A DNA stretch of 64,000 bases, taken from an uncultured Pseudomonadales bacterium (GTDB lineage Bacteria > Patescibacteriota > Microgenomatia > UBA1400 > UBA1396). The stretch spans positions 59,623-123,622 of the forward strand of contig CAZRWP010000001.1 of assembly GCA_964603945.1 (NCBI GenBank), written 5' to 3'. Below are positions 1,044 to 63,413 of the stretch, one piece after another. Each line of letters begins with the position of its first letter. Positions within the stretch are counted from its first letter, which is position 1. The position numbers were made by a program, and so were the translations under genes. The notes under the pieces are model-generated. The model did not search any database. It was not told the DNA's origin and saw only the letters and a list, made by a program, of their open reading frames with translations.

Positions 1044-1892
1044 ATGGCTGAAACTCCACTTTTCACCATAATTTTTGGACCAACCGCTTCCGGTAAATCT
1101 GCGCAAGCCTACGAGTTAGCTCAAAAACTAGAAACCAATGTCTTGTCCTTTGATTCGCGGCATATTTATCAAGGAATGGATATTGTTACCGGTAAAGATC
1201 GGCCACCTCAAGATTGGCCGCAGAAGTTACTGGGAGTTGATTTGGTTACGCCAGATCAGGATTTCTCAATTCGCCATTACTATGAATATGCCAAGCCAAT
1301 AATTAATTCATATCGCGAGCGGCAAAAGCCACTAATTTTAGTGGGCGGTTCGTGGCAATATGTTGATGTTTTGCTCAGACCACCAGCGTCCTTATTTGTT
1401 CCGATTGACGAAAAATGGCGCCAAGAGGCTAACAAACTAAGCACACCACAATTGCAAGCAAAATTGAAACAAGTGGATGAAAGTAAATTTTCTGCCTTAA
1501 ACCAATCTGATGTCGCCAATCCTCGTCGTCTGATTAGAGCAATTGAGGTCGCTAGCCAGCCGGAAATTACTACACCCCAACCCTTGATACAAACAAACGA
1601 ATATCAGCTGATCGCTAAAACTCCTTCAATTGACCAAATCTCTGACCGAATTATTAATCGTATCCAGGAGCGACTTAATCAAGGAGCCCTTGAAGAAACT
1701 GAATATTTAATGAATAAGTATCCGGATTGGCATGCCCCCGCATTTTCCGCTACCGGTTACGGGCCAATCAGACAGTATCTTGAAGGTCAGATTGATGAGG
1801 AATCGATGAAACAAGCCTGGAAACATCAAGAACGTGAATATGCCAAGCGCCAGTTGGTCTGGATAAAATCTTTAGATTTGATAGCCGAGTAG
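1044..1892 (+). CDS. miaA: tRNA dimethylallyltransferase MiaA
   Basis: N-terminal P-loop 'FGPTASGKS', 'DSRHIYQGMDIVTGK' IPP-transferase signature; 3 nt after miaB stop. Confidence 0.85.
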   Translation: MAETPLFTIIFGPTASGKSAQAYELAQKLETNVLSFDSRHIYQGMDIVTGKDRPPQDWPQKLLGVDLVTPDQDFSIRHYYEYAKPIINSYRERQKPLILVGGSWQYVDVLLRPPASLFVPIDEKWRQEANKLSTPQLQAKLKQVDESKFSALNQSDVANPRRLIRAIEVASQPEITTPQPLIQTNEYQLIAKTPSIDQISDRIINRIQERLNQGALEETEYLMNKYPDWHAPAFSATGYGPIRQYLEGQIDEESMKQAWKHQEREYAKRQLVWIKSLDLIAE

Positions 1893-2268
1893 TTTACGAT
1901 TATTTTTCGACTAGTTAAGGAACAACAGCAACTCAACCAGCGTGATTAAGGCTAAAGTTCTAAATAAAAGTAATCCCCAAGAAATTCTCAGCAGAAAATC
2001 ACAAAAGTGTGGCTTTACATAAACGCTTGAATCGTAGCTTAATGGCCGGCGCTTTTTAATTTGACGACTCCTTAAATAGCTATTTAACTTCTCGTGACAA
2101 TTTGGAACTTTTACCTCATTTAAGGTTTCAAAATAAGCAGGCTGGTACGCTGATGGGTCTCGCACCTTATTATTTCTTGCTATTCAAGAAATATTATAGC
2201 ATACTAGATACTGCTTTAAACGGATATATTAAGCAATTTTGTTGCTTAATGGTGATGGATGCCGATAT

Positions 2269-2535
2269 TTATCTATTTTCTGAAGAAGATTGGCTTCGCA
2301 ATCTATTTAATTCTGCTTGAACTTCATACCAAAGACCGACACGATAAGAACCTGAGAGCTCAGGTACATGAGTTTCTATGATCCGAGTTATCCAATAAAA
2401 AACTAATGGGTTTTCTTTGTACTCAACTAAGCTTGGAAAATCTATTGGCTGACCATTAGTTTCTCCCTCATGTATCACTCTAGCAATTTCTGTTACAGCA
2501 GAATTAAATGACATTGTTCCCTCTTTCTTAGGCAA
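2269..2535 (-). CDS. hypothetical small protein co-oriented downstream of lexA (8-nt overlap)
   Basis: 88-aa ORF overlapping lexA stop by 8 nt; no recognisable motif; may start at internal MSFNSAV. Confidence 0.35.
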   Translation of the reverse strand: MPKKEGTMSFNSAVTEIARVIHEGETNGQPIDFPSLVEYKENPLVFYWITRIIETHVPELSGSYRVGLWYEVQAELNRLRSQSSSENR

Positions 2536-3432: not shown

Positions 3433-5604
3433 ATGTATAAATTACAAGCTCCTTATCAGCCAGCTGGCGATCAGCCAAAAGCCATCCAAGAGATGACGCA
3501 AAATTACCTCTCCGGTCAAAAGGAGCAGGTCTTGCTGGGCGTTACCGGATCGGGCAAAACTTACACCATGGCAAACGTCGTGGTCAATTTAAACAAACCG
3601 ACCCTGGTTATTGCCCATAATAAAACATTAGCCGCTCAGCTATATCAGGAGTTTAGAGATTTTTTCCCAGAAAACGCTGTCAGTTATTTTGTCTCCTACT
3701 ATGATTTTTATCAGCCGGAAGCATACATCGTCACAACTGATACCTATATTGAGAAGGAAGCGCAAATTAATGAGGAAATTGATAAGTTGCGCCTGGCTAC
3801 AACGGCCAATTTGCTTTCCAGACCGGATTGTATTGTGGTGGCGTCAGTTTCCTGTATATATAACCTAGGACGCCCAGAAGATTTTGCCAATTTTGCCCTA
3901 GAAATTGTGGAGGGCGAAGTAATTTCCCGTCAAACTCTAATCACTCGCTTGGTAGACATGCAGTACCAACGGGTAACGGCTGAACTTATGCGCGGTACTT
4001 TTAGATTGCGCGGTGAGGCCGTTCAAGTCTGGCCAGCCAACGAAGAATGGGCATTTAATATCTTAATGCCAGGCAACAGCATCTCAAAAATTGAGAAGAT
4101 ACATCCATTGAGTGGTGATCTCTGGCCGATTCAGGCTTCGCAAAATCCTTACGAACCACGCCGACACACCATTTACCCGGCCAAACACTACATAGCCAGT
4201 CAAGATAGTGAAGGGGCAATTAAGCAGATTGAGGCTGATTTACAAACTCAACTCGTTAAGCTAAGAGCAGAAAATAAAATTCTGGAGGCTTATCGCCTGG
4301 AGCAACGCACCTTGCATGACCTCGATATGATTAAAGAGGTCGGTTACGTCAACGGAATTGAAAACTATTCCCGCTACTTTGATGGCCGCAAGCCTGGCGA
4401 CGCTCCATTTACATTGCTGAACTACATGCGCTGGAACGCTGAGAAATTTGGCGATGGCGAATTCTTAACCATTGTTGATGAAAGCCACATGACATTGCCG
4501 CAAGTCAGAGGCATGTATAACGGTGATCAAAGCCGCAAGACCACCCTAGTCGATTATGGTTTTAGATTGCCAGCGGCCATGGACAATCGCCCGCTGCACT
4601 TTGATGAATTTTTGGATCGCACCAGTATGCTAGCTTATGTCTCCGCGACTCCGGCCAAATGGGAAGTTGAACACAGTCAAAATACCGTGGTGGAGCAGAT
4701 TGTTCGGCCAACTGGTTTGGTAGATCCTCAAGTGGAAATCAGGCCAATTAATAACCAAATTCCTGATCTTCTGCATGAAATTGTGGTCCGCAAAGAGCGC
4801 GGCCAGCGCGTTTTAGTAACTACCTTGACCAAAAAGATGGCCGAAACTTTATCCGAATATCTAAATGATGCCAAAAAGATGAATGAGCTACTGGAGCGTC
4901 ATGGCTACAACCCAACCGACGATATGCCCAAAGCTCAGTACCTGCACTCTGACGTCCAAACCCTGGAGCGCAGTGACATCTTGGATGATCTGCGCCGCGG
5001 TGAATACGACGTTTTAATTGGTGTTAACTTACTGCGCGAGGGACTCGACCTGCCGGAAGTGACTTTGGTGGCTATTTTAGACGCCGACCAGGAAGGCTTC
5101 CTGCGCTCCACCTCTGCCTTGATCCAAACCATGGGCCGTGCCGCCCGCCACGTTGAAGGCACGGTAATTTTATATGCCGACCGCATGACTGGATCCATGC
5201 AGGCGGCAATTGATGAGGTCGGGCGGCGGCGCGACATCCAACTGGCTTACAACGCCAAGCACGGCATTGACCCTAAAACCATCGCCAAACCGGTTCGCGA
5301 TCGCTTAATTGCTCAACAGGAAAAAGAAGAACTACCTGGTATTGAGGCTATTAACTTGAATCGCCGGTTGAGCCGAGGCTTTAATCGCCCAGGCGAAAAA
5401 CGAGCCAAACACGATGGACAAACAGTCGTGGCACTTAATAAACGCACCAGCGTGATCTTGGAGCAACTCGATCCAAACTCACTCACCCCAGAGGATAAAT
5501 CCAAACTGTCCAAGCAACTGACCCGTGCCATGAACTTAGCCTCCAAAGAATGGAACTTTGAGCTAGCGGCTCAAATCAGAGATACGATCGCCAAACTAAA
5601 ATAA
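3433..5604 (+). CDS. uvrB: Excinuclease ABC subunit B (UvrB)
   Basis: Walker A 'GVTGSGKT', helicase motifs, beta-hairpin region, C-terminal UvrB/UvrC interaction helix 'ELAAQIRDTIAKLK'; 723 aa. Confidence 0.9.
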   Translation: MYKLQAPYQPAGDQPKAIQEMTQNYLSGQKEQVLLGVTGSGKTYTMANVVVNLNKPTLVIAHNKTLAAQLYQEFRDFFPENAVSYFVSYYDFYQPEAYIVTTDTYIEKEAQINEEIDKLRLATTANLLSRPDCIVVASVSCIYNLGRPEDFANFALEIVEGEVISRQTLITRLVDMQYQRVTAELMRGTFRLRGEAVQVWPANEEWAFNILMPGNSISKIEKIHPLSGDLWPIQASQNPYEPRRHTIYPAKHYIASQDSEGAIKQIEADLQTQLVKLRAENKILEAYRLEQRTLHDLDMIKEVGYVNGIENYSRYFDGRKPGDAPFTLLNYMRWNAEKFGDGEFLTIVDESHMTLPQVRGMYNGDQSRKTTLVDYGFRLPAAMDNRPLHFDEFLDRTSMLAYVSATPAKWEVEHSQNTVVEQIVRPTGLVDPQVEIRPINNQIPDLLHEIVVRKERGQRVLVTTLTKKMAETLSEYLNDAKKMNELLERHGYNPTDDMPKAQYLHSDVQTLERSDILDDLRRGEYDVLIGVNLLREGLDLPEVTLVAILDADQEGFLRSTSALIQTMGRAARHVEGTVILYADRMTGSMQAAIDEVGRRRDIQLAYNAKHGIDPKTIAKPVRDRLIAQQEKEELPGIEAINLNRRLSRGFNRPGEKRAKHDGQTVVALNKRTSVILEQLDPNSLTPEDKSKLSKQLTRAMNLASKEWNFELAAQIRDTIAKLK

Positions 5605-7035
5605 AGTACTTGTCTTTAAAAATTGACTTGATGGTATTTCCAAAATATTATCTGGCAAATTTTTTATACTTTCCGGGTCATCTTCATACACCATAATTGG
5701 TTGCGGATGATTTGGGTACATAATAGATAACATATGATTAAAATTTATGGCTTGAGAAACTTGTCTAGAAACTCCCCAGGTAGCAACAGGTGCTAATTCA
5801 TCATTGGTAAAAACAACTACAGTATCATCATTTAAGCTCGGATAATTTTGATTAAAATACTCAGATACCTGTCTGGCTATCTGAGGTCGATGAATACTAT
5901 AGTGAGCTTGATGATATAAACGCAAACTTACAATATTAAGCAGAAGAAAAATTCCCAGCATTATCTGACTCCATCTTATGGTCTGCCTGGTTGAAATAAA
6001 TGAGACTAATCCACTCAACATCAGTAAAGTCATAGATTGTCCTAGGACATACTTATGTCCAGGAAGAAATATTATAGGTAATAATGAGACTGCATAGCCC
6101 GCAATAATTAACCAAAAATATTTATTTCGCCAAACTTTAGCTCGCCAAAAAACAAAAATCCAAGTTGCAATCGTAATTAATAATAAGATCAGAAGCCACC
6201 AACCCCAAATTGGAAAAGCTGTAAAATATTGCGGAAGAATGCGTAAACCACTACTCACATAATCTAGTAACATTTCAGGTGCGCCCAAATTCCAAATGCT
6301 ATACCAAGAAAACGTATGAATCGCTCTAAAAGGCGAAAAATTCCATACATAAGCCTGCCCGCCAACTGCTTCAGTACCTAATACTAATAATCTAAGTGGC
6401 AAATATGCAGCTAACACAGCAATAAATGGCACAAGGTGAGACAGTTTTTTTACCGATTTTATTTTTGAGAATATAAATAAAATTAAAGGAAATACAACTG
6501 CACTTTCTTTTGAAGCTAAAGCTAACACAAAACACAACAAGCTCAGCCACGTTGTTGTCCAATCAGTTTTCTTAAAATACAGATAAATCCCTAATACCAC
6601 AAAAAATAGCATTAAAATTTCCTGAAAAGCTGATAAATAAAATACTCTTGTAAATTGACTGGCAGAGAATGCAAAGATAAAAGTTCCTATTGTAGCCGCT
6701 CGGCTGGATTCAAAAATCAATTTCCATAGATACCAAACTAAAATTACTGTTCCAGCAAGTATTAGTAGCGAAAACAGATAATATGGCCAGGCTGATAGTC
6801 CAAACAAGTTCTGAAACAGTCCAAAAAATAGTTGAGTGCTTAGAGGTCGATACATCGGGGTGCTTAAGTCATTTTGCCAAAAGGAAAAAGCTTGAAACAA
6901 TTTCCACCAAGGCACATCTTTGGTCAAATTTAGAAAATACCAATCGTCACTCCAAAAGAAACTCCGAAGTGACACTGCATGAAACAATAACAAACAAAGA
7001 GCTAAATATGTAGCTGGATGACGAAAAACATTCAC
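5596..7035 (-). CDS. Polytopic membrane GT-C-fold glycosyltransferase-like protein (PMT_2/TMTC-like family, paralog of 44298..46115)
   Basis: Multi-TM; shares 'F-W-(S/D)-DD', 'Y(R/K)PL' and 'SKE(S/T)..FPL' motifs with ORF 44298..46115; gene is markedly AT-richer than neighbours. Confidence 0.5.
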   Translation of the reverse strand: MNVFRHPATYLALCLLLFHAVSLRSFFWSDDWYFLNLTKDVPWWKLFQAFSFWQNDLSTPMYRPLSTQLFFGLFQNLFGLSAWPYYLFSLLILAGTVILVWYLWKLIFESSRAATIGTFIFAFSASQFTRVFYLSAFQEILMLFFVVLGIYLYFKKTDWTTTWLSLLCFVLALASKESAVVFPLILFIFSKIKSVKKLSHLVPFIAVLAAYLPLRLLVLGTEAVGGQAYVWNFSPFRAIHTFSWYSIWNLGAPEMLLDYVSSGLRILPQYFTAFPIWGWWLLILLLITIATWIFVFWRAKVWRNKYFWLIIAGYAVSLLPIIFLPGHKYVLGQSMTLLMLSGLVSFISTRQTIRWSQIMLGIFLLLNIVSLRLYHQAHYSIHRPQIARQVSEYFNQNYPSLNDDTVVVFTNDELAPVATWGVSRQVSQAINFNHMLSIMYPNHPQPIMVYEDDPESIKNLPDNILEIPSSQFLKTSTLF

Positions 7036-53146: not shown

Positions 53147-53225
53147 ATTTGAATTTGATGGAGGCGCGGCCGTCTCCCCAGGAGCGGCCGCGCCAACTTG
53201 CCAACTTCAATTTAATAAATATTTC

Positions 53226-54902
53226 TTAGACATTGCCTTCAATGGAATTGATAATCACCAGTACGAGCGGCTCCTTTTCCGATTCTTGGCGGATTCGGTA
53301 ACGGATGTCGTTTTTAATTTGAATAGGCAAATCTTTAGCCTCTTGTCCATTTTTGGCCAGTGTTTCGCGGACAGTTTCCCGTACAATTTGGTATAACTGC
53401 TCCTGCTCTTCAGGAGAAGTCAGGCCTAAGCCTCTTTCTTCAACCGACATATTGTTGAGGTCATAATTACCGGCCACTTCGTTCATCGCCACCACAATTA
53501 CACCCTGCTTGCCCAAAATTTCGCGATCAGCCAACACCTGATCCATCACTTGACTGGTTGTGCCAGCTACTGTGATCGTTCGTTCCCTCAACTTAATTTC
53601 TTTACCATAGCGGAAACCGTTGGCGTCTAGTTCAACTGGCTTACCATAATGAGGTAAAACAATCTGATTAAGGTTATAGCCGTGATGCTCGACCACATGG
53701 CTAAAACGTACGCGGTGACGTTCTTCACCGCCAATCGGGAATAGATATTTTGGCTTCAACAGGTGAACCATGAGCATCTGCTCATACTCACCAGCGTGGC
53801 CGGAAACGTGCAAATCGTCATCCACGTCTGAATAAGCCACGTCGATACCCTTTTCGGCTAATTCATCAATAACACCATAGACGTTGATTTCATTACCGGG
53901 AATTGGTTCCGAGGCAACGATCACCTTGTCGCCGCGATGAATGTTGACCAGGCGGTGCTCGCCGGAAACGGCTCGCACCAGCGAAGATCCAGCCTGTCCC
54001 TGACTGCCAGCGACCACTAAACAAATCTGGTCATCCGGCACTCCATCTAGGTTCCGTTTGTTGAGTTTGATATTGGGTGGGAAATTTAGCAGACCCATAT
54101 TCATGGCTGTGTTTACATTCTGCTCAACCGAACGGCCAATAAAGCTGATCTTGCGGTCAAACTCTGAGGCCACATCAATTACCTGCTGAACGCGGTGCAA
54201 ATTGGAACTCATTAAGGTCACAATTACCTTGCCTTTAACATCATGCATTTCACGCCGCAAAGTGCCGCGTAGAACCGATTCAGACGCCGTGGGATCACGG
54301 CGCTCAATGCGCAGACAATCCAGCAAAGCGCACAGCACTCCTTCGCGGCCAATATTGGCAATTTTTTGCAGATCCATGTGCTGACCGTCAACTGGCGTTA
54401 AGTCGATCTTAAAATCAGACCCGTGGTAAATCACACCTTCCGGCGTGCGGATCACCAAGTGACGAGTGTCGGGCACTGAGTGAGTTACGCGAATTGTCTC
54501 AAAGGTGAACGGTCCCAATTTTAGCTGGCCATCATCAAAGTACTGGACTTCCTTTTCAATATCCTGATCAGCCAAACGAGTCATAGCAAACTCAGCCGTT
54601 AAAGGCGAGCCATAAATCGGCACATCCACGCCGATCTCTCGTAAGACATACGGCAAGGCGGCGATATGGTCATCATGACCGTGAGATAGGACAATACCGT
54701 GCAGAGTCGCGCCAGCGGCTAAACGATCCTGCAGATACTGTGTATCGGGCACCAGGATGTCAACGCCAGGCATTTCCATCGGCGCAAAGCCGATTCCGCA
54801 ATCGACAACAACCATATCATCGCCGAGCTCGTAAACAAACATGTTTTTAGTGACACGTCCAATGCCACCCATGGGGAATATTTTTAACATAAATGTGTTC
54901 AT
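53226..54902 (-). CDS. rnj: Ribonuclease J (metallo-beta-lactamase/beta-CASP)
   Basis: 'IVLSHGHDDHIAALP' HxHxDH motif, beta-CASP and C-terminal domain, 558 aa. Confidence 0.85.
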   Translation of the reverse strand: MNTFMLKIFPMGGIGRVTKNMFVYELGDDMVVVDCGIGFAPMEMPGVDILVPDTQYLQDRLAAGATLHGIVLSHGHDDHIAALPYVLREIGVDVPIYGSPLTAEFAMTRLADQDIEKEVQYFDDGQLKLGPFTFETIRVTHSVPDTRHLVIRTPEGVIYHGSDFKIDLTPVDGQHMDLQKIANIGREGVLCALLDCLRIERRDPTASESVLRGTLRREMHDVKGKVIVTLMSSNLHRVQQVIDVASEFDRKISFIGRSVEQNVNTAMNMGLLNFPPNIKLNKRNLDGVPDDQICLVVAGSQGQAGSSLVRAVSGEHRLVNIHRGDKVIVASEPIPGNEINVYGVIDELAEKGIDVAYSDVDDDLHVSGHAGEYEQMLMVHLLKPKYLFPIGGEERHRVRFSHVVEHHGYNLNQIVLPHYGKPVELDANGFRYGKEIKLRERTITVAGTTSQVMDQVLADREILGKQGVIVVAMNEVAGNYDLNNMSVEERGLGLTSPEEQEQLYQIVRETVRETLAKNGQEAKDLPIQIKNDIRYRIRQESEKEPLVLVIINSIEGNV

Positions 54903-54983
54903 CAGCTAATTAATGGATAACCAACACTTGTCAGTTATCAAAAAGCTGATGAAACTCCTTTCTTTTCTTTATTTTTAGAAACC

Positions 54984-55610
54984 CTAAAATAGGGCTTCTT
55001 TTATGCTCTCAATTTGTTCAGCCTGGCTTTCCCGCTGGCCAATATAAGCCAAGGCTTTAGGTATTTTGCCAATATCTTGGCTAAATGCCTCCTTTAGCTT
55101 GCCATTTCTAAGCGCCGCCGCTGGGTGATAAATTGGCAAGACATATATTATGCGCCCTTTCCAGCGGATCCGCTTCAGAACTCCGTGGACTAAGGTTATT
55201 TTAGCCTCAGGTAGAAAAAAATTTAGACTGAATCTGCCTAATGTAACAAACAATTTAGGCTTGATTAAGTCAATTTCTTCCAGCAAAAATGGTAAATAAG
55301 CTTTTATTTCGTCTAGCTGTGGATCGCGGTTGCCTGGCGGCCTCACCTTGACGATATTGCTGACATATAAATCTGGCCTAGCTAGACCATTTTCCTCAAG
55401 CGTCCGGTTAAATAACTGACCAGATCGTCCGACAAACGGAATGCGCTGCTTTGCCTCCTCAGCTCCTGGCGCCTCGCCAATCACCATTATTTGAGAGTGC
55501 AAATTACCTTGACCAATCACGATATCCTGGGGAACCTGGCAAAGTGGTAGATCGTCACAACGCGACTCCATTAGTTTTAATAACTTCGCGTGCTGATCTT
55601 CTCTCGTCAT
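54984..55610 (-). CDS. Uracil-DNA glycosylase, family 4
   Basis: 'VIGEAPGAEEAKQRIPFVGRSGQLF' family-4 UDG motif A and C-terminal 'HPAAALRN' motif. Confidence 0.75.
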   Translation of the reverse strand: MTREDQHAKLLKLMESRCDDLPLCQVPQDIVIGQGNLHSQIMVIGEAPGAEEAKQRIPFVGRSGQLFNRTLEENGLARPDLYVSNIVKVRPPGNRDPQLDEIKAYLPFLLEEIDLIKPKLFVTLGRFSLNFFLPEAKITLVHGVLKRIRWKGRIIYVLPIYHPAAALRNGKLKEAFSQDIGKIPKALAYIGQRESQAEQIESIKEALF

Positions 55611-55934
55611 GCTGAATCTCTATTGTATCAGGTTAAAAAACTGCAAATTTGCGGTGTCAAAAATTGCGGGGAAAGTACATTACAACAGCTTTGACAATAA
55701 AAATACAGAGTTGAATTGAAGGCTGTTGAACAGATAAGGTCATAAAAGTGTTGAACCTGTCCACTAGCACCATCTCCACTTACTATTTGAGACAATTTCA
55801 AGCACCACAAGACATAAATTCTCCCTATTTTGAAATATCTAATTCAGCTTTTAACTGCTGTAGATCAACCTATTCTTATAAGTTACTAAAAAATATTTCA
55901 GCTGAAAAGGCTGATTGGTAAGAGTTGGTAATTT

Positions 55935-56654
55935 ATGGCTTATCGCTCAAACCGCTACGATAACCGCCGACCAAAATATAAAAAACCACCAGAATCACGA
56001 CCTTCAAGACCTCAGTCTTTTGCCAAACACCGTTATGATTTTGGAGACAAAGAAAAACGAGAAATAAGAGAGGTAACTGGAGACCGATGTCTCCGCTGTG
56101 GAATTCAAGAGCATGAGTTAGATTTACTTCTAGCGCAAGCTTGTGAAAAGTGTGATCTAAATGACGCTGACAAAAATTGCAATAGTGGCTGTGACATTAC
56201 CAGTGATCGTCATCTGGAGATTCATCATACTGTCTCAAAATGGTTTGCAGCCGAAAATAAAATGGATTCCAAGGTGATTGGAAGCCTGAACATGGGTGTT
56301 TGTCTTTGTAATGAATGCCACAAAATTATGGATCGATTAGCTCAACAACCAGACTCAGAAGATGATCTCAGAACACTTTATGAACTCGGAAAGCGTGATC
56401 TATCGACTCAAGAAATTACAAATCTCTTCAGAAGAGCTAGAACTAAAAGTTACTTGGCTGAAATTTTACGTATTTGGTACAACCGCGACATGATTGTCAA
56501 TGGATTGGAACCAGAATTTTTGCCTCAGCCAGACAGAATTTTATTAAGAACAGCCCAAGCCAAAGCTCTAATCAAAGAACAACAAAAAAGAGAGAAGTCA
56601 AATTCTCGCATGCGCAAACACCAACCACAAGGGCAATATTACGAGCTTCGCTAA
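55935..56654 (+). CDS. HNH endonuclease-domain protein with basic N- and C-termini (low-GC gene)
   Basis: 'CLRCG..LEIHHTVSKW..N..CLCNECH' HNH CxxC/HH/CxxCH pattern; gene ~40% GC with 324-bp AT-rich upstream spacer containing TTGAC-like direct repeats. Confidence 0.6.
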   Translation: MAYRSNRYDNRRPKYKKPPESRPSRPQSFAKHRYDFGDKEKREIREVTGDRCLRCGIQEHELDLLLAQACEKCDLNDADKNCNSGCDITSDRHLEIHHTVSKWFAAENKMDSKVIGSLNMGVCLCNECHKIMDRLAQQPDSEDDLRTLYELGKRDLSTQEITNLFRRARTKSYLAEILRIWYNRDMIVNGLEPEFLPQPDRILLRTAQAKALIKEQQKREKSNSRMRKHQPQGQYYELR

Positions 56655-56658
56655 CTAT

Positions 56659-57789
56659 TTAGTACGTCGGCAGGAAAAATTTAACATTATCCTGATTAAT
56701 CACAACTTGAGGCAAATTTTTCTCCAGACGTAATCTGGCGGCCTTGGCCACCGCTCCCTTGAGATTGCGTTCCAGCGTACGAATTCCGGCGTCAAAACCT
56801 AACGGACGAACCATAGTTGGCCAAACATCTTCAGCAATAATCAGTGAATTAGCATCCATGCCGGCTTCCTGCAGAAGTTTGGGCATGACGTAACGCTGGG
56901 CAATCACCGTTTTTTCATCATCACTGTAAGAAGGCATGTCAATCCGCTCGACCCGGTCCATCACGGCCGTGGCAATTGAGCGGGTATTGTTAGCAGTGGC
57001 AATAAACAAGACCTGAGACAAATCCACGGGGTAATCCAAATAGTGGTCAATGAAGGCATAATTCTGCTTGGGATCCAAGAGCTCAACCAGCACACCCATG
57101 ATGTCCATCCGAGCATCTTCCGCAACCCGGTCAATTTCATCTAAAAGCATAACTGGATTTCGAGTTTTGGCTTCCGCCAGACCTTTAACCACCCAGCCAG
57201 GTTCTGCTTCTAGGTGCAGTCTGGATTGGCCACGCAGGTCGCGCGCCGATCCCATTCCGCCAAAAGGAATACGGACGATTTCGCGCCCCATGGCCTCGGC
57301 AATAGAGTAAGCAAAGGTGGTTTTACCGGTTCCTACCAGACCTACTAGCAGGACAATTGGCGCGCGTATCTGACCACGCTCCAGCGTGTCTGACTGAGCG
57401 GCCTGCTCAGCCTGTTGTTTTTGAAATTTAAGAATGGCAATGTACTCCAAGATGCGATCCTTAACCGATTGCATACCATAGTGATGCTTTTCAAAAATCT
57501 GCTTAGCTTGCTCTAAATCCAGCGTGTCTTCCGTGGTAACTTCCCAGGGAACTTGAGTCGCCCAATCTATGTATTTGGTTGTGCGCTCATAAGCTTCACT
57601 GTAATTTTGCGTCTGGGCGGCGCGCTCTAATAAACGAATTTCCCGATCTAATTTTTGCTTAAGATCGTCTGGCGCCGTGGAATCAGCAATCCGCTGTTTT
57701 AAAGCACTAATCTCATCGCTCACTACCTGATCAGGCACATTATTGGTCATTGAAATATTGTCATCAGCCATACAGATACTATAAACCAT
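56659..57789 (-). CDS. Lon-homologous AAA+ ATPase lacking both LON N-terminal (PUA-like) and C-terminal protease domains
   Basis: Aligns to Lon central helix + AAA+ module: 'YIDWATQVPW', 'HYGMQSVKDRILEYIA', Walker A 'LVGLVGTGKTT', Walker B 'MLLDEID', 'FDAGIRTLERNL' sensor-2 region; stops where Lon protease domain would begin, 4 nt from convergent HNH gene; start set at MVYSIC outside repeat. Confidence 0.7.
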   Translation of the reverse strand: MVYSICMADDNISMTNNVPDQVVSDEISALKQRIADSTAPDDLKQKLDREIRLLERAAQTQNYSEAYERTTKYIDWATQVPWEVTTEDTLDLEQAKQIFEKHHYGMQSVKDRILEYIAILKFQKQQAEQAAQSDTLERGQIRAPIVLLVGLVGTGKTTFAYSIAEAMGREIVRIPFGGMGSARDLRGQSRLHLEAEPGWVVKGLAEAKTRNPVMLLDEIDRVAEDARMDIMGVLVELLDPKQNYAFIDHYLDYPVDLSQVLFIATANNTRSIATAVMDRVERIDMPSYSDDEKTVIAQRYVMPKLLQEAGMDANSLIIAEDVWPTMVRPLGFDAGIRTLERNLKGAVAKAARLRLEKNLPQVVINQDNVKFFLPTY

Positions 57790-57795
57790 CGGATG

Positions 57796-57917
57796 AGAAG
57801 GATCACTGCTAAGAAGGATCATCGCCAAGAAGGATCATCCTTGCCCCTCCTCTTGCCTGGAAGGATCATCCTAGGATGATCCTTCTTGAGGAAACCAAGG
57901 GCAAGGATGATCCTTTA
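57796..57917. repeat. Nested-palindrome intergenic repeat element, copy 2 (forward orientation)
   Basis: Same architecture as 11604..11716 (GAAGGATCATCC x4 around CCTAGG-centred palindrome, TTGCCC/GGGCAA inner inverted repeat); preceded by degenerate AAGAAGGATCATC tandem; ~35 bp upstream of Lon-like ORF start. Confidence 0.8.
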
Positions 57918-57980
57918 GTATAATGAAAAAATGAAAGACCCAAACAATGAAAACACTAAAAAAATCCGGTTGGCCGTTTT

Positions 57981-58397
57981 ATGGTCGCCGTGGGAGCAAT
58001 AGTCCAATTAAAGGGAACTAATAAAATTTTACTGATCAAACGAAATGAAAATGAGGACTGGCAACCTGGCGAATGGGAAATTCCTTATGGTCGGATCGAC
58101 CAGTTTGAGGACTTGAGCACCGGACTTAGGCGAGAGGTTAAAGAAGAAACTGGCCTCACAAACCTGAAAATTGGAAATATTCTTACCAATTGGCATATTT
58201 TTAGAGGTCAAAAATCAGCTCATAACGAAATTATTGGCTTAACCTTTGTCTGCGAGACTTCCCATGAAAAAATTAAACTCTCTTTTGAGCATTGCGAGTA
58301 TCAATGGTGTGAACCAGAAGAAGCGATTAAATTAATTTCCACTGAGGGTATTAAGCGCGATGTCTTGGCTTTCATTGATCAGATTTCAAAATTTTAG
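57981..58397 (+). CDS. NUDIX hydrolase
   Basis: Nudix box 'GRIDQFEDLSTGLRREVKEETGL' (GX5EX7REUXEEXGU). Confidence 0.75.
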   Translation: MVAVGAIVQLKGTNKILLIKRNENEDWQPGEWEIPYGRIDQFEDLSTGLRREVKEETGLTNLKIGNILTNWHIFRGQKSAHNEIIGLTFVCETSHEKIKLSFEHCEYQWCEPEEAIKLISTEGIKRDVLAFIDQISKF

Positions 58398-58441
58398 TCC
58401 AAATTATAATCAAATTGCTAGTTTCACCAAAGAATAAACAC

Positions 58442-58490
58442 GATGAGCTGTTAGTCAGCCTGACTGATTAACAGCTCATCAATTTTTGTG
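58442..58490. terminator. Bidirectional terminator between NUDIX gene (+) and pnp (-)
   Basis: 12-bp perfect stem GATGAGCTGTTA...TAACAGCTCATC with inner GTCA/TGAC stem, followed by AATTTTTGTG on plus and T-rich on minus. Confidence 0.55.
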
Positions 58491-58548
58491 TTAAGTTTTT
58501 TGACAGATTACCAGATTAGTTGCCTAATAGCTTAAGGTTATTTAAGCC

Positions 58549-60858
58549 TTAACTGCGTCCGCCACCGTAGCTACCGCCGCGTCCGCCGCGGTCGCTTCGA
58601 CCACCGCTTCGACGATCTCCACCACGGCCGCCACGATCTCCGCCATAGCCACCTCGACCGCCGCGGTCGCTTCGACCACTGCCGTCATCTTGGCGTCCGC
58701 CACTGCGACCACCACTGCTATCGCCGCGGTCTCCACCGCCTTGCTGGCGGCGTTCTTGGCGTTCAGCCTCAGCTTGCTCACGTTCTTCTTTGGAAAGCAT
58801 GGTCAGGCGAACTCGGTCGCCATCAACTTCCAAAACCTCAACGTGAACGACATCATCCAGATTAACCACTTCATGTGGATCACGGACATAACCGGTTGCC
58901 ATCTGAGAAACGTGAACCAAGCCATCGCGGCCTGGCACCATTTCCACAAAGGCACCGTATTCCTCAATCCGGGTAACTTTACCATCAAATTCCATGCCTG
59001 GTTCAAAGGTCATCATCATGTTACGGATGGCGTGAACAGCGCGATCAATGTCTTCCTGGATTGGTGAAGCCACCGTGACTCGGCCATCTTCATCAACCGA
59101 GATCTCTGTCTTGGTTGATTCCTGCAAACTTCGGATGTTTTTGCCTCCGGGACCGATCAGCTCGCCGATCTGGCTAACCAGAATCTGTACAGCTTCAATC
59201 TTGGGGGCATTAGCGGCCAATTCCTTACGGGGCTCAGGCAGACATTCGAGCATCTTGCCTAAAATGTGCAAGCGGCCGATTCTAGCCTGTTCTAAGGCCT
59301 CAGTCATCACTTCCATTGGGATGCCATCAATCTTGATATCCATCTGAATAGCGGTTATGCCTTCATCTGTTCCGGCAACCTTAAAGTCCATATCACCGAT
59401 ATGATCTTCCAGTCCCTGAATGTCAGAGAGCACGACGTACTCATTGGTGTCATCATTGCGCATTAAGCCCATGGCGATTCCCGCCACCGGCTTGCGGATT
59501 GGCACACCGGCCGCCATCAGTGACAGCGTACTGCCACAGACAGAAGCCTGGGAGGTAGAACCGTTAGAACTCATGACTTCTGACACCACATGAATGGTAT
59601 AAGGGAATTCTTCCTGAGACGGGATAACCGGGAGCAAAGCTCGTTCGGCTAGGGCGCCATGGCCGATTTCGCGGCGCTTGGGCCAACCAACACGGCCGGT
59701 TTCACCAGAGGCAAAGGGAGGCATGTTGTAGTGGTGAATGTAACGCTTCTCCTCTTCACCTTCCATGTCTTCAATTAGTTGAGCAAAGGCGGGAGAAGCC
59801 AAAGTTGTAATCGTTAAGACCTGAGTTGCACCGCGTTTGAACATGGCTGAGCCATGTGCAGTCGGCAGTAAATCAACTTCACAGGTAATCTCGCGGATTT
59901 GATCAGTTTGGCGTTCATCTGGACGAATTCGCTCTTCAAAGGTACGGCGGCGAGCTTCCCTCTTCATTAGTAAGCTGAAAATCTCTCCAAGCGGAGCCTC
60001 TTCCAAAGCCTCGTCCTCGGCAATCAGTTTTTCCTTGAGTTTAGCGATGGTGTCATCTTGAGGCTGAAGCAAAGCTTTAGCTTTAACGGCTTGCGCAATT
60101 TCTGACTGATGATTCTTCCAAATCTTCTCAATTAATTCTTCATCCAGTTGAGGGGCCTCAAAGACTGATTTCTCTTTGCCGATGGCTGATTTCATCTCTT
60201 TTAAGACCGAGTTTATGCCCTTGATTTGTTCATGAGCCGCTTCCAGGGCTTTCACCATTTGGGCTTCACTTACCTCAAGCGCACCAGCCTCAACCATAAC
60301 AATGGCTTTATCCGTACCAGCGACAATCAAGTCGAGGGCAGAATCAGTCAATTCTTCATAGGTCGGGTTGTAGGTGAATTTGTCTTCTTTGGGCAAATAA
60401 CCTACGCGCAGACCACTGATTGGTCCGTTGAAGGGAATTGAAGAAATTTCCAGCGCGGCCGTGGTGGCAACTAAGGCCAGCATGTCCGGGTTGTTAACGC
60501 TATCAACCGATAAAACAGTGGCGATAACCTGAACTTCTCGCTTATAACCGTCTGGGAACATCGGACGAATACTTCGGTCAATGACGCGGGCGCTCAGAAT
60601 GGCTTCATCCGAAGGGCGGCCTTCACGCTTGACCCAGCGACTGCCTTTAATTTTGCCGCCAGCGTACAGTTTTTCAATGTACTCGACTTGCAGGGGGAAC
60701 CAACCTAAATTGGATTCACCGCCAAGAGCCACCGTGGCGTGGACAACAGTCCCGCCACATTTGGCTAACACGGCTGCTTCTGCTTGTTGGCTAAAGCGGC
60801 CGACTTCTAGGAGAATTTCTTTTTCTCCAATAGGAATGGAAAATTGTTTTACTTCCAT
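58549..60858 (-). CDS. pnp: Polyribonucleotide nucleotidyltransferase (PNPase) with ~70-aa C-terminal RGG/RG-rich tail
   Basis: Two RNase PH domains, KH and S1 domains; C-terminus 'GGGDRGDSSGGRSGGRQDDGSGRSDRGGRGGYGGDRGGRGGDRRSGGRSDRGGRGGSYGGGRS' encoded by imperfect DNA repeats (58552-58760). Confidence 0.9.
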   Translation of the reverse strand: MEVKQFSIPIGEKEILLEVGRFSQQAEAAVLAKCGGTVVHATVALGGESNLGWFPLQVEYIEKLYAGGKIKGSRWVKREGRPSDEAILSARVIDRSIRPMFPDGYKREVQVIATVLSVDSVNNPDMLALVATTAALEISSIPFNGPISGLRVGYLPKEDKFTYNPTYEELTDSALDLIVAGTDKAIVMVEAGALEVSEAQMVKALEAAHEQIKGINSVLKEMKSAIGKEKSVFEAPQLDEELIEKIWKNHQSEIAQAVKAKALLQPQDDTIAKLKEKLIAEDEALEEAPLGEIFSLLMKREARRRTFEERIRPDERQTDQIREITCEVDLLPTAHGSAMFKRGATQVLTITTLASPAFAQLIEDMEGEEEKRYIHHYNMPPFASGETGRVGWPKRREIGHGALAERALLPVIPSQEEFPYTIHVVSEVMSSNGSTSQASVCGSTLSLMAAGVPIRKPVAGIAMGLMRNDDTNEYVVLSDIQGLEDHIGDMDFKVAGTDEGITAIQMDIKIDGIPMEVMTEALEQARIGRLHILGKMLECLPEPRKELAANAPKIEAVQILVSQIGELIGPGGKNIRSLQESTKTEISVDEDGRVTVASPIQEDIDRAVHAIRNMMMTFEPGMEFDGKVTRIEEYGAFVEMVPGRDGLVHVSQMATGYVRDPHEVVNLDDVVHVEVLEVDGDRVRLTMLSKEEREQAEAERQERRQQGGGDRGDSSGGRSGGRQDDGSGRSDRGGRGGYGGDRGGRGGDRRSGGRSDRGGRGGSYGGGRS

Positions 60859-63319: not shown

Positions 63320-63413
63320 GAAGAAGGATCATCCTTGCCTTTAATTTACTCAAGAAGGATCATCCTAGGATGATCCTTCCAGGCAAGAGACGGGGCAAGG
63401 ATGATCCTTCTTC
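63320..63413. repeat. Nested-palindrome intergenic repeat element, copy 3 (inverted orientation)
   Basis: Reverse-complement arrangement of copies 1/2: GAAGGATCATCC-TTGCC..spacer..AAGAAGGATCATCCTAGGATGATCCTTCC..spacer..GGGGCAAGGATGATCCTTCTTC. Confidence 0.75.

Follow-up and report, generated by a model that had tools for sequence, protein, structure and literature searches.

A divergent HNH nuclease gene and its leader at a fixed AAA-UDG junction in a Microgenomates clade

A 64,000-nt stretch of contig CAZRWP010000001.1 (hereafter the window, with positions counted from its first letter), from a member of the Microgenomates, carries an HNH gene and a non-coding leader wedged between the genes for a Lon-like AAA+ protein (AAA) and a uracil-DNA glycosylase (UDG). 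The original prediction read this segment as a candidate selfish or homing element, set apart by low GC and by repeats in the leader. Comparison with relatives leads us to favour, with a probability of roughly 0.6, an old, fixed-site, fast-evolving accessory HNH nuclease cassette of selfish or conflict type that is not currently spreading. Divergent versions of the cassette sit at one and the same junction throughout a clade, the HNH gene is far more diverged than the genes on either side of it, and its base composition follows that of each host.

The locus and its nuclease

The following genes and spacer make up the locus.

54984-55610, minus strand: UDG, a family-4-type uracil-DNA glycosylase (Pfam PF03167, E 2e-32), directly after AAA in cassette-less relatives
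55611-55934, plus strand: leader between UDG and HNH, 324 nt, GC 0.34, no Rfam match
55935-56654, plus strand: HNH open reading frame (ORF), 239 aa, divergent His-Me finger nuclease
56659-57828, minus strand: Lon-like AAA+ ATPase, stand-alone, AAA domain plus Lon lid without a protease domain (Pfam; 47 orthologous loci)

The HNH ORF is intact and, as first described, stands tail-to-tail against the convergent AAA gene, the two stop codons 4 nt apart; the non-coding leader separates it from the divergently oriented UDG gene. GC content is 0.403 in HNH and 0.340 in the leader, against 0.448 in UDG and 0.480 in AAA, so that the reported AT-richness relative to these neighbours stands, but the drop is modest and several window genes and intergenic regions equal it or lie lower. 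Across all 56 window ORFs mean GC is 0.438 (sd 0.037) and mean GC at third codon positions (GC3) is 0.419 (sd 0.059); the HNH gene ranks 12th lowest of the 56 in GC and third lowest in GC3 (0.308), and the leader falls within the range of other long intergenic regions in the window (0.27-0.53).

Both protein features that had been claimed, a CxxC...HH...N...CxxCH core and basic N- and C-terminal tails, are present in the 239-aa ORF: the core residues are C52xxC55, H97H98, N119 and C125xxC128-H129, and the tails hold 11 Lys plus Arg in residues 1-33 and 9 in the last 34. A second Cys cluster is formed by C70, C73, C82 and C86. The protein finds no match in Pfam, NCBIfam or PDB sequences, even at E = 10, and in PHROGs only weak HNH matches (best E 0.004). 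Its distant relatives P0010 (22.5 bits) and P0011 (27.3 bits) score above the PF01844 gathering cut-off of 21.4 bits, and the profile of the nine-sequence family alignment (A1) matches the Cap5 HNH domain with E 0.005. Structural matches in the viral set are weak, yet mostly HNH, and the small nicking enzymes Gme HNH and GVE2 HNH are among the structural neighbours. The model has the beta-beta-alpha-metal fold, in which strand 1 ends with the catalytic His and the helix supplies the metal-ligand His (H97, H98 and H129, all invariant). Invariant columns in A1 are Y34, C52, C55, G56, H97, H98, A105, L124, C125, C128 and H129; because the zinc ligands and catalytic histidines of canonical HNH enzymes are among them, they support the assignment. 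The structural Asn, N119 in the window protein, is replaced in P0003, P0007 and P0008. By fold and transitive homology the window protein does belong to the HNH (His-Me finger) nucleases, though as a highly divergent one; what the original prediction called an HNH enzyme holds up in that sense, but the call cannot be made from standard models and needed a structure model and distant relatives.

Within the gene we distinguish the following parts.

56034-56342, plus strand: HNH core, about residues 34-136, with Y34, C52xxC55-G56, H97H98 and C125xxC128-H129 (A1 invariant columns; Cap5 match)
56106-56210, plus strand: Cys-rich insert, about residues 58-92 (C70, C73, C82, C86), between the first CxxC and HH, in all long forms
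56355-56498, plus strand: helical domain 3' of the HNH core, about residues 141-188, helices 141-152, 158-167 and 173-188, predicted local distance difference test score (pLDDT) >90
56464-56467, plus strand: T4 run, which a natural 1-nt insertion extends to T5 in one allele, shifting the frame of the last 60 HNH residues
56526-56654, plus strand: conserved basic C-terminal tail ending ...YYELR, the best-conserved part between window and L010

Every long-form member has the Cys-rich insert, whereas P0010 and P0012, the short forms, are without it; model confidence is low there (pLDDT about 50), and its four cysteines probably form a second zinc site. The helical domain is common to the window protein and P0003 only, being much shorter in other members, and may bind DNA. 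In the tail (last 40 residues or so) the nonsynonymous distance (dN) between the window and L010, the closest relative, is 0.12-0.13, whereas it reaches about 0.5 in the remainder of the gene. The family is very small, with 3 proteins in a set of 5.8 billion and 11 in a set of 1.84 billion cluster representatives; searching the former with a profile brought no new lineage, the sole addition being a fragment of the window's own protein.

A fixed site with changing content

The AAA gene, which had been taken for a truncated Lon-like ORF, has same-length orthologues in the same synteny at 47 loci in GTDB representative genomes, all of them Patescibacteria and mostly Microgenomates lineages (e.g. 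Woesebacteria, Pacebacteria, Shapirobacteria), the widespread gene order being PNPase-(NUDIX)-AAA-UDG-RNase J-YgjP. The orthologues measure about 370-397 aa throughout and consist of an AAA domain and a Lon lid without the protease domain; the same species also has a full-length Lon, encoded separately and not far away. Because size and domain set are the same in every orthologue, AAA is a conserved stand-alone gene and not a truncated Lon.

In this widespread arrangement UDG follows AAA directly, with a gap of 21-163 bp in 11 of the 16 cassette-less loci where both genes were located; the gap in the window is 1,048 bp. Since AAA and UDG are adjacent outside the clade, the polarity is that of an insertion, and HNH gene and leader are, as sequence comparison indicates and as was originally proposed, an insertion into a formerly contiguous AAA-UDG pair. 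No HNH family member occurs at the 47 GTDB AAA loci by tblastn or by a hidden Markov model (HMM) scan of all ORFs. Different inserts do occur at the AAA-UDG junction in other Microgenomates lineages, namely a Fic/Doc-like ORF (L013, 7212-7715), an unknown 379-aa ORF (L017, 7111-8250) and a CDP-alcohol phosphatidyltransferase (L029, 7063-7848), and insertions seem to recur at this junction.

Carriers of the cassette form one Microgenomates clade whose AAA proteins are 70-86% identical among themselves and to that of the window; the AAA of the nearest cassette-less genome, L012, is about 67% identical. Long-form members with readable context all lie tail-to-tail with AAA at the same site, and the family members at the site are these.

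P0003: L010
P0006: L058, L059 and L065
P0008: L061
P0009: L062
P0011: L069

HNH proteins are only 28-39% identical within this clade, or 48% for the pair formed by the window and L010. Nei-Gojobori dN within the clade is 0.64-0.88 for HNH, 0.09-0.26 for AAA and 0.16-0.26 for UDG. In the closest pair, window and L010, the flanking DNA is 85-89% identical and the HNH gene has dN 0.41 and a synonymous distance (dS) of about 1.5, against dN 0 and dS 0.7 in the adjacent 31 AAA codons; overall dN/dS of HNH is about 0.27, and a crude dN/dS lies below 1 in every 30-codon window. The rates point to rapid protein evolution under weak purifying selection and to long residence. HNH GC tracks that of the host (0.38-0.51), and GC3 lies below that of the neighbouring AAA in 5 of the 5 lineages compared; since it is low in every host, low GC3 belongs permanently to the gene (through low expression or weak selection on codons) and is not the mark of a recent import. 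There is no second HNH copy in the window, nor did scans of viral contigs or tblastn against phage genomes find one, and the nearest relative outside the clade is the short-form P0010, on a phage-like contig among CHAP and DnaB-like genes. Recent or ongoing homing, one way to take the original candidate homing element, is therefore not supported: members of 28-48% identity share one site, the gene is more diverged than its flanks, its GC is host-like, and there are no other copies. Largely, the same gene recurs in the same context and with host-like composition in relatives, within a family-level clade.

Every sampled lineage of the clade carries some cassette, and three versions occur at the site: HNH only, geneX plus HNH, and geneX paralogues only. 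The geneX of L062 is a 253-aa ORF (5240-6001) upstream of HNH; L011, the closest GTDB genome (AAA 80% identical), has geneX only (1823-2482, minus strand), in the same place and orientation; L074 (2053-3448) has a 236-aa paralogue and geneX; in L072 (4655-6687) and L073 a 160-aa ORF accompanies the 236-aa paralogue and geneX. Proteins of the geneX family, of which there are only 4 in the 5.8-billion-protein set, have an N-terminal hydrophobic helix and the motif AHxNH...N...TIYEHxxxH, and find no match in Pfam, PDB or PADLOC. The idea that the geneX of L011 and L062 is a degenerate HNH paralogue found no support (hhalign probability <1%, no PDB match, AlphaFold2 (AF2) pLDDT 51); its likeness to Cys-less HNH enzymes would be a resemblance at the level of motifs. 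PADLOC matches neither the window HNH nor geneX to a defence model, and the partner genes expected of Septu, Zorya, CBASS Cap5 and retron-associated systems are not there, the neighbours being UDG, RNase J, AAA, NUDIX and PNPase.

Arg is the last residue of all 14 long-form cassette proteins and follows Leu, Ile, Val or Thr in 12 of these ([LIVT]R); among the 56 window ORFs only 5 end in Arg (C-termini were compared at window 56640-56651 and in L010, L011, L058, L060, L061, L062, L069, L072 and L074). The last two codons vary between lineages, so that the constraint on the terminal Arg acts at the protein level. The short forms P0010 and P0012 do not have the terminal Arg.

Contigs of the same species, all retrieved through the HNH protein or the leader, give a strain-level density of single-nucleotide polymorphisms (SNPs) of 0.4-0.8% in HNH, similar to the flanks. 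The T5 allele at 56464-56467 (P0002, with P0005 as its downstream ORF) occurs on contigs from 7 samples (L004-L009 and L068), the intact allele in the window and in L001-L003; with the frameshift in 7 samples, the HNH gene appears dispensable, at least in its full-length form.

Several further differences between strains were observed near the cassette. In L001 (JGI 3300001682, a 99% identical strain) about 183 bp inside UDG are swapped for an unrelated 139 bp (L001 5779-5917, window 55315-55497), breaking UDG into ORFs of 109 and 37 aa; this could be a strain variant or an assembly chimera. L058 and L065 carry an identical P0006 HNH gene with different leader sides, a cytidylyltransferase-like gene in the one and UDG in the other (L058 395-961, L065 2849-2926), so that one of the two strains may have been rearranged at the left border of the cassette. 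Farther out, SNP density reaches 4.2% in RNase J but does not exceed 1% in UDG, HNH or AAA, and the YgjP-RNase J spacer (79 bp, window 53147-53225) differs by 33% from that of L004 and L005, strains otherwise 98-99% identical; in L068 and L001 it agrees with the window.

On the other side of the locus, an 89-nt nested-palindrome element with four alternating AAGGATCATCCT copies lies just upstream of AAA (window 57827-57915), and an inverted second copy, 93% complementary, lies 5.4 kb off at 63324-63412. Its RNA fold has -55.7 kcal/mol (z -6.9), and it looks like an intergenic repeat of the repetitive extragenic palindromic (REP) or miniature inverted-repeat transposable element (MITE) kind. 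The PNPase gene encodes an Arg/Gly-rich repeat tail (GGDRGGRGG...; window 58549-58850, minus strand) from a GC-rich (0.64) imperfect tandem repeat.

The leader

Elements of the leader are listed in order of position.

55622-55630, minus strand: proximal UDG extended -10, TGATACAAT, about 12 nt before the UDG ATG, from comparison with L012 and L013
55666-55745, no strand: block of about 80 nt that aligns without gaps and is better conserved than any other part of the cassette (alignments A2, A3 and A6)
55679-55687, minus strand: putative distal UDG-directed extended -10, TGTTGTAAT, from the ATTACA conserved in A2 and A6
55711-55740, plus strand: putative HNH promoter, -35-like TTGAAT (55711-55716), 18-nt variable spacer, -10-like TAAGGT (55735-55740), by consensus reading
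55724-55756, plus strand: TGTTGAAC direct repeat of the original prediction, copies at 55724-55731 and 55749-55756, absent from other leaders
55850-55885, plus strand: degenerate counterpart of the leader terminator, with 2 of 7 pairs possible and no T-run in the window
55898-55914, minus strand: terminator-like hairpin just upstream of the HNH start, a weak call (4 such sites against 1.9 expected)

The conserved block, with the consensus GGGGA-N-ATTACA-N-AAAAATAnAGAnTTGAA-N19-TAAGGT, is present in the leaders of HNH-only, geneX plus HNH and geneX-only cassettes, and in a single copy in the window; a scan of metagenomes for its pattern returned two true loci only (L065 and L068) and four chance matches. 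Read by consensus, it may be a pair of back-to-back promoters. TTGAAT and TAAGGT are near-invariant at a fixed spacing in 4-7 lineages, with a variable spacer between them, and an A-rich tract precedes this putative plus-strand HNH promoter. Toward UDG, the same TGTTACAAT box as in the proximal extended -10 stands ahead of the gene in the cassette-less L012 and L013, and the pattern TGnTAn[AT]AT is found within 120 nt upstream of 5 window ORFs.

Downstream of the block, 7 of 8 full leaders have an intrinsic terminator (RCARCC-N4-GGYTGY followed by T6-T9), 9-86 nt ahead of the first cassette ORF, whose stem is kept by compensatory changes (A-T to G-C and G-C to A-T). Because the terminator is conserved, expression of the cassette is probably gated by termination in most lineages; in the window lineage, where only the degenerate counterpart is found, this gate has probably been lost. 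Since the leader block and the compensatory terminator are common to all three cassette versions, these are one homologous cassette. The minus-strand hairpin at 55898-55914 might, speculatively, end read-through from AAA antisense to HNH.

The leader repeats had been thought a feature of the element. The leader holds 6 copies of TTGA[AC], where dinucleotide shuffles give 1.4 (P about 0.001 for a pattern chosen post hoc), so that TTGAC/TTGAAC is indeed locally enriched and TGTTGAAC does occur twice, its first copy in the variable promoter spacer and its second just past the -10; but the repeats are specific to this lineage and not a conserved feature. A conserved operator array of TTGAAC repeats was accordingly discarded: orthologous leaders do not keep the copies, and only the TTGAAT at 55711 is conserved. 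The leader was also tried as a remnant of geneX, for which tblastn gave nothing. Rfam returned no relevant family on 54000-58500, the RNA fold of 55745-55950 is not unusual (z -1.4), and RNAalifold on four leaders gave weak long-range pairs only.

Competing explanations and known systems

Taken together, these observations are best accommodated by the following sequence of events, offered as a model. The cassette would have been inserted long ago into a contiguous AAA-UDG pair, between the AAA stop codon and the UDG promoter, and would have stayed there while its content turned over among HNH, geneX plus HNH, and geneX paralogues, its proteins diverging several-fold faster than their neighbours and keeping their catalytic residues. 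The HNH enzyme would cut DNA by the standard one-metal mechanism with a His general base, holding zinc at the usual CxxC...CxxC site and probably at a second, Cys4 site. The gene would be transcribed from a promoter in the conserved leader block (-35 TTGAAT, -10 TAAGGT), with the intrinsic terminator ahead of the first ORF holding expression down in most lineages and lost from that of the window. In role, the protein would be a dispensable accessory nuclease and not a housekeeping enzyme: either a fixed former homing-type endonuclease or a defence or toxin nuclease.

Several points weigh against this interpretation. Nuclease activity of the HNH protein is predicted, no Pfam model (PF01844 and PF13391 included) fits it at E = 10, and the structural Asn N119 is not kept throughout the family. 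The HNH has no PADLOC defence-model match, and the nuclease-like character of geneX comes from its motif, with hhalign below 1% and AF2 pLDDT 51. The promoter is a consensus reading: a sigma-70 scan reported no promoter in the leader, the hexamers scoring below its threshold. HNH distances between deep lineages are saturated, with dN about 0.8 for all pairs, so that co-divergence of HNH and host is visible only for the pair of window and L010, and horizontal exchange within the clade by way of the conserved flanks may have taken place. Moreover, the same-species sample was drawn through the cassette itself and is thus biased to cassette-bearing alleles.

Foremost among the alternatives is an active free-standing homing endonuclease that cuts incoming cassette-less AAA-UDG junctions, for instance during natural transformation, after which repair copies gene and leader into the break. 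Repeated homing by divergent members would explain the constant site, the insert splits genes that are adjacent in relatives and always begins 4-20 nt past the highly conserved 3' end of AAA, and its size and layout, a catalytic domain followed by a helical C-terminal domain, are like those of phage free-standing HNH enzymes such as T4 MobE (PMC2790892). The outside relative on a phage-like contig points the same way, the frameshift allele would suit the stage of a homing cycle at which the gene degenerates, and the other inserts (L013, L017, L029) show that the junction is permissive. However, the cassette is in every sampled lineage of the clade, HNH is more diverged than its flanks and has no near-identical copies across hosts, GC tracks the host, the window holds a single copy and the viral and phage collections hold none, and a SNP density of 0.4-0.8% in the gene, similar to that of the flanks, gives no signature of a co-conversion tract. 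Given this poor fit to deep divergence, host-tracking composition and a single site, we rank active homing below the long-resident cassette and consider it unlikely.

Less likely again is an effector of a conflict system, a defence or toxin nuclease whose C-terminal [LIVT]-Arg is a signal recognised either by the neighbouring Lon-like AAA+ or by some other protease or export system. The changing gene content, the turnover of paralogues and the speed of evolution would suit such an effector, as would the tight gating of expression by the leader terminator in 7 of 8 lineages, the terminal Arg in 14 of 14 long-form proteins against 5 of 56 background ORFs, and the constant adjoining of cassette and AAA gene. 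Yet PADLOC matches neither HNH nor geneX, AAA looks like a housekeeping gene conserved in dozens of cassette-less genomes, HNH and AAA, being convergent, do not share a transcript, the window shows no evident immunity-like partner, and a dN/dS below 1 in all 30-codon windows gives no signal of positive selection. A more specific and quite doubtful proposal is that this is a hypervariable, previously undescribed nuclease cassette in which the terminal [LIVT]-Arg of three kinds of unrelated-looking protein, the zinc-finger HNH, the Cys-less geneX paralogues and the 160-aa protein, is read by the Lon-like AAA+ (e.g. as a C-degron or loading tag), a housekeeping unfoldase thereby licensing or restraining the nuclease while the promoter-terminator leader gates its transcription. 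If the terminal Arg and the constant adjacency of the AAA+ gene did reflect such a functional link, this would be a new control principle for such nucleases.

The two remaining explanations are both disfavoured. HNH could be a host repair nuclease that works with UDG, an endonuclease acting at AP sites or by nicking and co-regulated from a shared divergent promoter region, to which the divergent arrangement, the 80-nt block common to both genes and the nicking enzymes among the structural neighbours (Gme HNH, GVE2 HNH) would correspond; this is very improbable, as the same UDG lacks HNH in most Microgenomates, an unrelated-looking geneX takes its place in L011, L072 and L074, HNH dN is 5-9 times that of UDG or AAA, the frameshift allele is common, and UDG has its own proximal promoter, as in cassette-less relatives. 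That the gene is a decaying relic without present function, to which low GC3, fast evolution, the frameshift allele in 7 samples and the variable structural Asn might be attributed, is the least probable of all, given an ORF intact in at least 6 lineages despite saturated synonymous divergence, seven zinc and catalytic residues that are all invariant, an overall dN/dS of about 0.27 between window and L010, and a strongly conserved C-terminal tail.

As an old accessory cassette, the locus extends the HNH nucleases by a subfamily that is very rare and unannotated, and offers a case of a small cassette long resident at one housekeeping junction of reduced candidate phyla radiation (CPR) genomes, with an evolutionary rate several-fold above that of its surroundings; in Patescibacteria, such accessory nuclease loci have so far been little studied. 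It also teaches that low GC plus an HNH domain is by itself no indicator of recent mobility, since here the low GC3 persists in every host.

Fixed hot spots of chromosomes can hold variable cassettes of nuclease or toxin genes, which follow the logic of defence islands and polymorphic toxins. The AAA-UDG cassette is like them in the turnover of content at a single junction, in its paralogues and in its fast evolution. By contrast with them it has no match to a defence or toxin model and no immunity, secretion-associated or mobile-element gene nearby, and it comprises only 1-3 genes.

T4 MobE is a free-standing HNH homing endonuclease of a phage (PMC2790892). The window gene resembles that type as a small stand-alone HNH gene with its own (here putative) promoter, wedged between genes that are adjacent in relatives, and in that its nearest outside relative lies on a phage-like contig. 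It differs in residing in a cellular chromosome at one fixed site throughout a clade, in being more diverged than its flanks and host-like in composition, and in showing no sign of recent transfer and, by tblastn, no similarity to any phage record.

The closest comparison is with the zinc-finger HNH enzymes of the PF01844 type (the Cap5 HNH domain, EcoKMcrA, phage GVE2 HNH and Geobacter Gme HNH). The window protein shares their beta-beta-alpha-metal fold and a CxxC...CxxC zinc site that brackets the HH general-base motif and a C-terminal His, and distant members of its family exceed the Pfam threshold. Unlike them, it has no Pfam or NCBIfam match of its own, it carries a Cys4 insert of 35 residues after its first CxxC and ahead of HH, its tails are long, basic and disordered with a family-specific ...[LIVT]R end, and it is without a SAVED, sensor or DNA-modification-reader domain. 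The superfamily is a known one, and so is the situation, a stand-alone HNH gene between conserved genes; what is unusual is the variable cassette at a fixed site, the universal C-terminal Arg and the promoter-terminator leader.

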